The notes under the pieces were generated by a model, which did not search any database, was not told where the DNA came from, and saw only the letters and a program-made list of their open reading frames with translations. From Acidimicrobiia bacterium (GTDB lineage: Bacteria > Actinomycetota > Acidimicrobiia > Acidimicrobiales > Bin134): a stretch of DNA of 64,000 nt. The stretch covers positions 152,731-216,730 of the forward strand of contig JAJDYE010000016.1 in assembly GCA_022822905.1 (NCBI GenBank), read 5' to 3'. The position numbers and the translations under genes are program-made. Positions within the stretch are counted from its first letter, which is position 1; each line of letters begins with the position of its first letter. This document shows positions 3,933 to 5,875 of the stretch, piece by piece.

Positions 3933-5042
3933 ATGGCTGCTCCTCGCGACACGATATGGACGCTCGAACCGCACACTGCGGCAAAACATGACCTTCTCAG
4001 GCACTATCTGAAGGCTTGGTATCCGATTCTCGCACGACATTCAGGACGTGTCATTTTCCTGGACGGTTTCGCTGGACCAGGGATCTACAAAGGCGGTCAA
4101 TCTGGCTCACCAATAATCGCCATCAATACTCTTCTCGAACACAGCTATTTTCCAAATCTAAATGAATGCGAGTTTGTTTTCTTGTTTATCGAAAACAATA
4201 GCGAGAGACTAGGCCGTCTGGAGACCGAGCTACGTGGCCTGTACCCCCTACCATCCAATATCAATGTTGAGACAATCGAGGGAGAATTCCAAGATGTAAT
4301 TGAGGAAATAGTGGGAAAACTGGCAGAAGAAGAAGCGAGACTAGCTCCAACACTTGCATTCATTGACCCATTTGGCTTTTCCGGAGTTCCGATGGATACT
4401 ATTCGGCGATTTCTAAGCGCACCAAAGTGTGAATTGATAATGATCCTAATGGTAGATCATCTCAACCGATTCAAGTCACATAGCCCAGTGAAGATGCGGT
4501 TTGAAACTCTTTATGGAACTGTCAATTTTGACGGTGTGGAAGCTGCTGATGATGCTGTACCTGTGTTAGTTGAGAAATATAAGAGTCAACTGAAGAGAGT
4601 CGCTGGATTTTCGTTTGCATTAGACTTTCAAATGGTACGATCTGACGGTCACGATGCCTATTTCATAATTTACGCCACAAGGAACATCACTGGGGTCAGA
4701 AAATTCAAAGACGCAATGTGGACAGTCGATCCTGCAGGTGGTCAGCAATTCTCAGATATGCACTGGAACCAAGTGCCTCTGTTTACGGGGTCTAATGTAG
4801 ATACAACTTTGCTCCAACAAGAACTTAGCAAGGAATTTTCGGGGAAGACTGTGGGTATCGAAGAAATTGAAGAGTATGTTCTGCTCAAAACACCTTACAA
4901 AGAATCCCATATAAGGCGCATGACTTTGGTACCCTTGGAGACTGCAGGAAGAATAGTAGTAGTTGAATCTACCAAAAACCGCAGAATTAGCACTTTTCCC
5001 CCGGGAACGAAAATACTCTTTCAGCCCACTTTAGGCATCTGA
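3933..5042 (+). CDS. Three-Cys-motif partner protein TcmP family (TIGR04474-like; RlmJ-like methyltransferase-fold N-terminus)
   Basis: 369-aa ORF. N-terminus is WTLEPHTAAKHDLLRHYLKAWYPILARHSGRVIFLDGFAGPGIYKGGQSGSPIIA, followed by AFIDPFGF. It lies next to a DUF5131 gene and has markedly low G+C. Confidence 0.7.
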   Translation: MAAPRDTIWTLEPHTAAKHDLLRHYLKAWYPILARHSGRVIFLDGFAGPGIYKGGQSGSPIIAINTLLEHSYFPNLNECEFVFLFIENNSERLGRLETELRGLYPLPSNINVETIEGEFQDVIEEIVGKLAEEEARLAPTLAFIDPFGFSGVPMDTIRRFLSAPKCELIMILMVDHLNRFKSHSPVKMRFETLYGTVNFDGVEAADDAVPVLVEKYKSQLKRVAGFSFALDFQMVRSDGHDAYFIIYATRNITGVRKFKDAMWTVDPAGGQQFSDMHWNQVPLFTGSNVDTTLLQQELSKEFSGKTVGIEEIEEYVLLKTPYKESHIRRMTLVPLETAGRIVVVESTKNRRISTFPPGTKILFQPTLGI

Positions 5043-5875
5043 TCCCAAGTTCTTCCCTCAAGCTCGCGACCTGCCTCACTCTTACTGACTCTACGCATTA
5101 GGATAGGAGATCCAGGGATAGGGGTAGAGTCTGGTTCGGCGACAAACGTCCCATCATTCACCACTAGGACCGCATTATCATCGTCCCTCGGAGTCCATGC
5201 TCCCCATTGCTTGAAGAAGAATGCTGTATCGGACTCTAGGCATCTATCCCGAAGGTCAAACACCCATGAAGGATGCATAGGGCGGGCGTTCGCTCCCGAT
5301 TCACCTCCAGCTATGACCCAATCTATGGCATCAAGACTAAGTGAAGGCAACTCTCCCAAAAGAGGCTCAGCGGATACGAAGCGAATGACTGACGGCACTT
5401 CACTCAAGTGATCGACTCGAAAGCAATAGCGATCTGTCTCCACACTCACACCCATCCAAATATTCTCAGGCCAAGGAAGGCGTGTTGCAAGCTTGACAAG
5501 ACGTTGCGAACGTTTGGTGAGTACCTGATACGTATGTCGAGGAGTGTCAGCCATAACCTGAAATACATCTTCAATAAACTGATCAGGAACTTCAGGATGG
5601 AATAGATCACTCATGGAGTTCACGAAAATCACCCGTGGAGATTTCCAGCGATATGGAAGAGCTAGCTCATCCTTGTGAAGCGTCAAGGCAAATCCGGGAC
5701 CGCTGGTTCGTGGGTCTCCATCGTCTTGATATTTCGGATTGCCCATAGCCTTGAGCCGCTTGGCGAGGGTAAGCGCGTAGCAGTTGTCGCAGCCAGGCGA
5801 TACCTGGTCGCATCCCGTTGTGGGATTCCAAGTAGCCTCGGTCCACTCGATCGTTGACCGGTCGCTCACAGGCAC
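5021..5875 (-). CDS. Phage Gp37/Gp68 family protein (DUF5131, PF07505), three-Cys motif protein
   Basis: 284-aa ORF. N-terminus is [28 protein letters not shown] (Cx6CxxC, nt about 5780-5812). GTG start at 5875 follows GAGGAAG. The 3' end overlaps TcmP by 22 nt in convergent orientation. Confidence 0.75.
   Translation of the reverse strand: [284 protein letters not shown]

Follow-up and report, generated by a model that had tools for sequence, protein, structure and literature searches.

Among the described systems closest to that considered here are spore photoproduct lyase (SPL) and gp53 of phage M6, an SPL-like radical S-adenosylmethionine (SAM) enzyme that installs a thymidine hypermodification in DNA (PMC8989533). 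Both act on DNA, which provides a precedent for DNA chemistry in the radical-SAM clade that appears to supply the partner of TcmP, the three-Cys-motif partner protein. We analyzed a 64,000-nucleotide stretch of an Acidimicrobiia genome (contig JAJDYE010000016.1, positions 152,731 to 216,730; referred to in its entirety as the window) that encodes TcmP convergently with a protein of the DUF5131 (Gp37-Gp68) family. This pair is already defined by the models TIGR04474 and PF07505, is labeled routinely by PGAP, and is listed in PADLOC-DB v2 as the candidate PDC-M30. PDC systems are unvalidated "guilt-by-embedding" candidates; in one P. aeruginosa panel, 32 of the 100 strains were predicted to carry PDC-M30, and 68.8% of these carriers were phage resistant (PMC10855318). 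No published validation of phage protection by PDC-M30 was found in the literature.

In the reading that we tentatively favor, and to which we give somewhat less than an even chance, TcmP and DUF5131 are two SAM-dependent enzymes that together make up a self-contained, mobile module for modifying nucleic acid, the target most likely being a DNA base. The window copy adds little by itself, being an ordinary copy of a catalogued module; particular to it are a C-terminal insertion in DUF5131, common to related Acidimicrobiia, and an unusually deep G+C trough. The family matters more than this copy, as it is widespread, two genes suffice, and it is coupled to an SPL-clade partner.

Family membership and predicted folds

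The family assignments of both proteins are unambiguous by profile search. TcmP matches TIGR04474 with 178 bits (cut-off 53, E=3.3e-52), and DUF5131 matches PF07505 with 340.9 bits (cut-off 28.9, E=5.5e-102), its residues 7 to 281 covering profile positions 2 to 243 of 243. With scores this far above the cut-offs, and with both open reading frames (ORFs) lying where a preliminary description of the window had placed them, the identity that it gave to the pair is confirmed. In PADLOC, PDC-M30A matches TcmP (E=8.6e-57) while PDC-M30B and PDC-M41B match DUF5131 (E=1.5e-100 and E=2.3e-104, respectively), and both component hidden Markov models of PDC-M30 are thus matched by adjacent genes. Among PHROGs, phrog_2045 matches DUF5131 and none matches TcmP. 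The real start of DUF5131 is probably a GTG at 5869, giving a 282-residue protein that begins MSDRSTIEW, since a Shine-Dalgarno-like GAGGAAGG lies just upstream and the closest homologues are 282 aa long. A promoter and terminator scan of positions 3600 to 6300 gave no sites above those in shuffled sequence, although the consensus may not apply to an actinobacterial host. Coordinates are collected in Table 1.

Table 1. Features of the tcmP-DUF5131 locus and its island neighbors (window coordinates)
Feature	Position	Strand	Description
tcmP (three-Cys-motif partner protein)	3933..5042	+	369 aa; predicted class I SAM-methyltransferase fold plus C-terminal winged helix
TcmP motif I, FLDGFAGPGIY, residues 42-52	4056..4088	+	Putative SAM-binding glycine loop, after beta-1 strand 39-44
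TcmP motif IV, FIDPFGF, residues 143-149	4359..4379	+	D-P-F-G after beta-4 strand 140-144
TcmP winged helix-turn-helix, residues ~292-363	4806..5021	+	PF22560 E=5.8e-5; model topology H-S-H-H-S-S
DUF5131 / Gp37-Gp68 family gene	5021..5875	-	284 aa as ORF; predicted SPL-clade radical-SAM-like
Three-Cys motif C22-x6-C29-x2-C32	5780..5812	-	Presumed [4Fe-4S] ligands of DUF5131
tcmP/DUF5131 3'-end overlap	5021..5042		22 bp, convergent genes
AAA_16 ATPase	1..615	-	Island neighbor; N-terminal 205 aa of the translation, runs off window start
PD-ExK-like nuclease motif (DILVCPKGHAPVIVEAKFD) and N6-adenine methylase (VADFACGTG ... MNPPYG) fusion	823..3819	+	Island neighbor; 998 aa

TcmP is predicted to have a SAM-binding class I methyltransferase fold that is closest to Trm1 and RlmJ. 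Its AlphaFold2 (AF2) model, with a predicted local distance difference test score (pLDDT) of 90.4, consists of a seven-strand class I methyltransferase core (strands at residues 39-44, 80-87, 110-116, 140-144, 167-173, 228-235, and 241-249) to which an N-terminal helix, a helical insert, and a C-terminal winged helix are added. A Foldseek search of the PDB returned 117 matches at E<=1e-3, led by Trm1, RlmJ, and CmoA (top entries 3axs, 6qe5, and 2ejt, E about 2e-6), and the 50 matches listed were all class I SAM-dependent transferases, nearly all of them methyltransferases, with TYW4 included. A profile search of the PDB found no meaningful sequence relative of TcmP.

The motifs expected of such a fold are strongly conserved. 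Across 61 homologues, D44, F46, A47, G48, P49, G50, and Y52 are invariant in the glycine loop (within residues 40 to 52, VIFLDGFAGPGIY), as are the acidic E87 after beta-2 and, within residues 141 to 151 (LAFIDPFGFSG), D145, P146, F147, and G148. This D-P-F-G resembles motif IV of exocyclic-amine methyltransferases (DPFG in Trm1, DPPY in RlmJ). The C-terminal domain matches PF22560 (GMT-wHTH) at 23.9 bits, just under the 27-bit cut-off, and PF22560 is precomputed for most TcmP homologues. The preliminary description had pointed to FLDGFAGPGIY and FIDPFGF in the 369-aa protein and to Cx6CxxC in the 284-aa protein, all of which are present, and its assignment of TcmP to a SAM-binding RlmJ-type fold agrees with both the Foldseek matches and the invariant D44/G48/G50, E87, and D145-P-F-G148.

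These folds also bear on what the module might act upon. Under an alternative that we consider unlikely, the module acts on RNA or on a free nucleotide, either through tRNA or rRNA modification resembling that by TYW1 with TYW2/3 or by RlmN, or through viperin-like antiviral nucleotide synthesis. Prokaryotic viperins, radical-SAM enzymes that act in defense via nucleotides, are a precedent for the latter, and the closest solved folds of TcmP are the RNA methyltransferases Trm1 and RlmJ, with TYW4 also in the list; however, the partner clade (SPL, M6 gp53) acts on DNA, the TcmP winged helix is typical of DNA binders, and a housekeeping RNA modification would not typically show sporadic horizontal transfer, low G+C, and carriage on plasmids or prophages.

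DUF5131 is most likely an SPL-clade radical-SAM-like enzyme, as predicted from its model and its placement among described subgroups. C22, C29, and C32 are each kept in at least 90% of 55 homologues. The AF2 model (pLDDT 81) has as its best PDB match in Foldseek the spore photoproduct lyase 4fhg (prob 0.99, E=2e-3), and its other best matches are LIAS/LipA lipoyl synthases, SuiB, and NifB, all radical-SAM enzymes. In SFLD and RadicalSAM.org, DUF5131 is a radical-SAM subgroup, Megacluster-5-2, placed beside SPL in 5-3 (PMC9477430). A reading of DUF5131 as an Fe-S, SAM-radical enzyme acting on nucleic acid, in line with the Fe-S-dependent nucleic-acid modification module of the preliminary description, is therefore backed by the radical-SAM matches of the predicted structure and by the SFLD subgroup.

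TIGR04471 (rSAM_mob_pairA) matches DUF5131 weakly (E=5.5e-18), PF20903 gives no match to the window protein, and a profile search of the PDB found no meaningful sequence relative. When DUF5131 was aligned by hhalign with the Rv2578c-like proteins that replace it beside some tcmP genes (see below), its three Cys fell opposite their CxxxCxxxC, a weak match (E=1e-3, prob 20%). Because profile-profile comparison is weak, the homology of DUF5131 to canonical radical-SAM proteins rests on Pfam cross-matches, the fold search, and SFLD. A Foldseek search against viral models was uninformative: most matches were to unnamed proteins, and a few were to entries labeled "radical SAM" or Gp88. Residues 44 to 62 of DUF5131 form a loop that is invariant or nearly so in the 55 homologues, yet has a pLDDT of about 46 to 62; this loop is a candidate substrate- or partner-binding element.

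With SPL as the best structural match of DUF5131, a role in DNA repair has to be weighed, in which DUF5131 would use radical chemistry to reverse a specific lesion, in the manner of SPL, with TcmP as a lesion-recognition or accessory subunit. Alternative TcmP partners match SPL Pfam and TIGRFAM models, although always far below the family cut-offs (e.g., 52 to 76 bits versus 400), and solitary DUF5131 genes are common in early or DNA-metabolism regions of phages. We regard repair as distinctly improbable, given that the intact, invariant SAM-methyltransferase motifs of TcmP have no obvious repair role and that association with restriction-modification (R-M), Abi, mobile, and lysogeny-module genes fits conflict better.

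Partners, mobility, and genomic setting

The strongest argument for radical-SAM chemistry of DUF5131 on nucleic acid comes from the clade of proteins encoded beside tcmP. TcmP is distributed across bacteria, archaea, plasmids, and temperate phages, and a profile search recovered it in 9,328 representatives of 50%-identity clusters (E<=1e-3). With each GTDB species represented by one genome, a pattern scan yielded at least 559 loci encoding TcmP. The best 80 were kept, and profile searches of their ORFs placed DUF5131 next to TcmP in 63. Several of the 17 loci without DUF5131 end at contig ends, and in 7 the neighbor is instead an SPL-family (CxxxCxxC) or an Rv2578c/PA0069-like radical-SAM protein. 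The SPL-family partners match PF20903 with E values from 4e-5 to 1e-17 and TIGR04070 with values of up to 1.8e-21. The Rv2578c-like partners at loci L029 and L074, which carry CxxxCxxxC, match both PF04055 (1.8e-12 and 3.2e-10) and PF07505 (3.4e-5 and 5.7e-6), double matches that link the families by sequence. TcmP is almost never found without a radical-SAM partner, and because that partner is DUF5131 or an SPL-like or Rv2578c-like protein, it appears to come from an SPL-related radical-SAM clade.

The 63 pairs are arranged convergently, tail to tail and usually with a 4-bp overlap, in 37 cases, co-directionally with tiny gaps or overlaps in 22, and divergently in 4. The suggestion in the preliminary description that the two genes need separate promoters thus holds for convergent copies such as that in the window and does not generalize to the family, in which the 22 co-directional pairs are operon-like. 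Across loci, the identity of TcmP to the window copy correlates with that of DUF5131 (r=0.67), from which the two proteins appear to be co-inherited, and in 60 of 61 pairs DUF5131 is better conserved than TcmP (median identities of 54.5% and 38.1%, respectively). The G+C content of tcmP is below that of the distal flanks in 48 of 55 loci, with a median difference of -7.9 points, and is never more than 3 points higher, so by composition the module looks foreign almost everywhere and horizontally mobile.

Phage and plasmid records contain DUF5131 far more often than TcmP. Among 50,697 phage records, 179 have DUF5131 and 10, all Gordonia phages, have TcmP, and plasmid records contain 416 and 48, respectively; the TcmP counts come from tblastn and may miss divergent TcmP-like proteins, so the rates of orphan DUF5131 are upper bounds. 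IMG/VR (2.9 million contigs) yielded 17 TcmP loci, with DUF5131 adjacent in 13. Neighbors in the phage and plasmid survey include ImmA/IrrE, PIN, MPN, and DUF4231 proteins. The Gordonia phages likewise carry the two genes side by side in convergent orientation, with TcmP labeled "methyltransferase." In phage ThankyouJordi (L081:6290-8868), tcmP (gp42) immediately follows the immunity repressor gene (gp43), with which it shares a strand, and DUF5131 (gp41) runs toward tcmP and overlaps its end by 4 bp, which places the pair between the integrase (gp38) and the repressor. The integrase-repressor slot of actinobacteriophages is the usual site of prophage-expressed defense genes. Solitary DUF5131 genes in mycobacteriophage TChen and prophage prophiGD43A-5 are found in long co-directional runs of small genes, and a TcmP profile search of these two loci found nothing; in TChen, DUF5131 has genes for an ATP-binding protein and for an HNH endonuclease as neighbors, and a DNA methyltransferase gene and a replication initiation gene lie downstream of it.

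The same arrangements bring up a toxin/antidote organization like that of R-M, in which TcmP would methylate host DNA as a self mark and DUF5131 would be a radical effector that damages unmethylated incoming DNA by strand scission or cross-linking. The convergent, separately promoted order of 37 of the 63 pairs resembles that of many Type II R-M systems; the defense-island and lysogeny-module settings suit such a system, no third gene is needed, and a fast-evolving TcmP would suit a specificity subunit. Nonetheless, the orphan pattern is the reverse of that expected, in that the presumed toxin DUF5131 often occurs without TcmP (179 versus 10 phage and 416 versus 48 plasmid records) and TcmP almost never occurs without a radical-SAM partner. 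DUF5131 is also intact in a close relative of the window (L007) whose tcmP is broken by an IS3 element, and the 22 co-directional pairs are translationally coupled. This organization is therefore an unlikely one in our estimation.

For 59 paired loci, we scanned on either side the two closest ORFs that encode 170 aa or more, 199 proteins in total. No conserved third gene was found beside the pair: 122 families occur among nearest and 110 among second neighbors, none of them in more than 5 proteins. R-M and defense families are represented by N6_Mtase (5), Eco57I (5), HsdM_N (3), EcoRI methylase (3), N6_N4_Mtase (2), ResIII (2), GmrSD_N (2), AAA_21 (2), Abi_2, RE_Eco29kI, HEPN_Swt1/PDC-M34B, and a DarT-associated NADAR protein, with mad2 assigned 4 times by PADLOC. 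Mobile-element neighbors comprise phage-type integrases (6), HNH proteins (4), TrwC relaxases (3), FtsK/SpoIIIE (2), rve (2), ISL3, and terminases (2). The possibility raised beforehand that the pair occurs overwhelmingly in prophage replication modules was rejected, as only 2 terminases and 6 integrases are among the 199 neighbors and the Gordonia pairs lie in a lysogeny module. In a related Acidimicrobiia genome (L002:12102-13327, minus strand), a HEPN_Swt1 protein (PDC-M34B) and a DUF5343 protein adjoin the pair; an unvalidated defense candidate directly beside it supports a defense-island context.

In the window itself, the pair lies at the bottom of a G+C trough. The preliminary description called this the lowest G+C of the window, correctly: the bin at 4001 to 5000 is the minimum of 64 one-kb bins (0.439). 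Bins from 1 to 6000 range from 0.44 to 0.61, against 0.65 to 0.69 for neighboring core genes. Individual values are 0.449 for tcmP, 0.519 for DUF5131, and 0.596 for the neighboring gene of the 998-aa protein, compared with 0.66 for positions 6100 to 30000. The flanks carry ilvD/MatE on one side and genes for a nitroreductase and a metallo-beta-lactamase-fold protein followed by gatB/gatA (named from our own reading of the sequence) on the other. A scan of the island ORFs revealed neither an integrase nor a phage structural gene near the pair, which has no tRNA gene nearby either, and with core genes at the flanks the setting is chromosomal and non-prophage, as had been proposed.

By sequence, the host is close to Candidatus Poriferisocius within the Acidimicrobiia. 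Positions 1 to 14000 are collinear with the complete Ca. Poriferisocius chromosome L001 (about 86% nucleotide identity) and with the metagenome-assembled genome (MAG) L007 (about 87 to 89%), indicating that the island was inherited in the lineage and was not gained by this strain alone. Synteny with L001 suggests a low-G+C island of roughly 8 kb, in which the L001 order is a DUF222-HNH endonuclease gene, the AAA_16 ATPase, the 998-aa protein, tcmP, and DUF5131. In a search for elements bounding the island, no tRNA was found anywhere in the window, L001, or L007, and the only mobile-type gene at its left edge is the DUF222-HNH gene in L001.

The 998-aa protein has weak matches to Eco57I, MTase_II, mad2, PglX, and REase_MTase_IIG, and BrxX/PglX structures match it at motif I (E=0.005). 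With this Type IIG or PglX-like build, it is best read as a self-contained neighboring system. The adjacent ATPase, for which L001 has a full-length AAA_16 orthologue (L001:5515-6684, minus strand; E=1e-13; 93% identical), is transcribed divergently from the 998-aa gene, and ATPase and fusion could be a separate two-gene restriction or defense system.

The 998-aa neighbor was central to the model of the preliminary description, in which the pair supplies modification in a system like Dnd or Dpd and the adjacent "restriction-like enzyme" supplies restriction; the AAA_16 ATPase might then belong to the restriction half as well. The genes are indeed adjacent on one low-G+C island, in an order kept in the close relatives L001 and L007. 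However, the 998-aa protein is self-sufficient, with an NPPY methylase domain of its own, and it and the ATPase accompany the pair only in those two of the 80 TcmP genome loci and in 0 of the 78 others, where the neighbors are unrelated. We consider this model very improbable and largely refuted by the absence of co-occurrence.

Other features of the region concern its variability. In L007, a relative with 94% identity, an IS3-family element (orfA with HTH_Tnp_1, orfB with rve; L007:5904-7185, corresponding to about position 4765 of the window) splits tcmP and leaves the convergent DUF5131 intact, making L007 a natural knockout of this one partner only. Genes combining DUF222 and HNH are found at the island edge in L001 (4104-5435, minus strand) and in the window at 31089-32456 (plus strand), within a second low-G+C stretch at 30 to 38 kb, and are possibly a mobile HNH element marking variable regions. 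At 32977-36915 of the window (plus strand; G+C 0.545 to 0.606), an RNase_T-type exonuclease gene is followed by one for a 991-aa NAD-dependent DNA ligase, the adenylation domain of which is matched in two stretches, suggesting an insertion. A typical LigA has about 670 to 700 aa.

Proposed function and comparison with known systems

Under the favored reading, TcmP would bind DNA through its C-terminal winged helix and would methylate or present a flipped-out base in a pocket of the Trm1/RlmJ type, formed by the DGFAGPG loop, E87, and D-P-F-G. DUF5131 would hold a [4Fe-4S] cluster on C22, C29, and C32 and cleave SAM reductively, and the resulting 5'-deoxyadenosyl radical would abstract hydrogen from a C-H bond of the same nucleotide, the steps presumably following in this order. 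Target specificity may reside in the fast-evolving TcmP and the chemistry in the highly conserved DUF5131. The module would act in phage-host conflict, as a lysogen- or island-borne defense or as an epigenetic mark, and would not be half of a system with the neighboring 998-aa enzyme.

Several observations weigh against this reading. The matches of DUF5131 to radical-SAM structures are weak (E of 2e-3 or weaker, template modeling [TM] scores of about 0.33 to 0.44), the window protein has no PF04055 (Radical_SAM) match at E<=0.01, its Cys spacing of Cx6CxxC is not the canonical CxxxCxxC, and hhalign found no significant similarity between it and the SPL-like partners (E=0.13). Trm1 (tRNA m2,2G26) and RlmJ (23S rRNA m6A2030) are RNA methyltransferases, making an RNA target possible. 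Many of the surveyed neighbors are ordinary metabolic genes, and the solitary DUF5131 genes in phage early-gene arms indicate that the chemistry is not always TcmP dependent. In addition, no functional study of TcmP, DUF5131, PF22560, or PDC-M30/M41 was found in the literature, in line with the preliminary description's statement that neither family has a demonstrated biochemical function.

A bolder proposal, which we consider possible but doubtful, is that TcmP and its SPL-clade partner are the first cellular writer of a radical-derived DNA base modification (non-methyl or methyl-derived), with only two genes serving to mark self DNA or acting directly against phage. If true, DNA modification or defense would gain a new chemical class separate from methylation, phosphorothioation, and 7-deazaguanine, and either a new DNA mark or a radical-based defense would broaden the chemistry known for DNA modification. 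Culturable carriers (Gordonia phage lysogens, P. aeruginosa, and Streptomyces plasmids) make the family testable, whereas the copy in an uncultured sponge symbiont does not.

Compared with the PDC-M30 or TcmP-DUF5131 family at large, the window pair shows no essential difference: the genes are adjacent, in the commonest (convergent) order, and in a low-G+C mobile defense-island context. It departs from the family in an insertion of about 45 residues at the C terminus of DUF5131, absent in many homologues, and in an overlap of 22 bp versus the usual 4 bp. Like Trm1 and RlmJ, TcmP is predicted to have a seven-strand Rossmann fold with a SAM loop rich in glycine; an acidic residue follows beta-2, and beta-4 is followed by a motif of the D-P-(F/P)-(G/Y) type. 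TcmP differs from them in that Pfam and PDB searches found no sequence similarity (TM-scores are 0.38 to 0.53), in a conserved N-terminal helix (H14, K18, Y25, W29), a helical insert, and a C-terminal winged helix-turn-helix, and in being mobile and paired with a radical-SAM gene.

On the side of DUF5131, SPL is the best structural match, TcmP's alternative partners match SPL models, and both SPL and DUF5131 have three Cys near the N terminus of a partial barrel, a fold that is tentative for DUF5131. Unlike SPL, DUF5131 has Cx6CxxC versus CxxxCxxC, no PF04055 or PF20903 match, a structural E of only 2e-3, an invariant, low-confidence loop at residues 44 to 62, and a methyltransferase partner, which SPL is without. 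The M6 gp53 enzyme differs in working with a pathway of a kinase, a transferase, and a pyridoxal phosphate enzyme. The radical-SAM mobile pair (TIGR04470/TIGR04471 with a MarR regulator) is likewise a mobile two-gene module; DUF5131 weakly matches its protein A, and the SPL-like and Rv2578c-like partners of TcmP weakly match its protein B. That pair, however, consists of two radical-SAM proteins without TcmP, and DUF5131 scores 65 bits against a cut-off of 355. Finally, Dnd/Ssp phosphorothioation and Dpd 7-deazaguanine modification resemble the proposed module as multi-enzyme, SAM- or Fe-S-dependent DNA modification encoded on defense islands, but each of these systems relies on a dedicated, conserved restriction partner and a larger gene set, whereas in the loci surveyed only the two genes of the TcmP-DUF5131 module are conserved, with no co-occurring restriction component.

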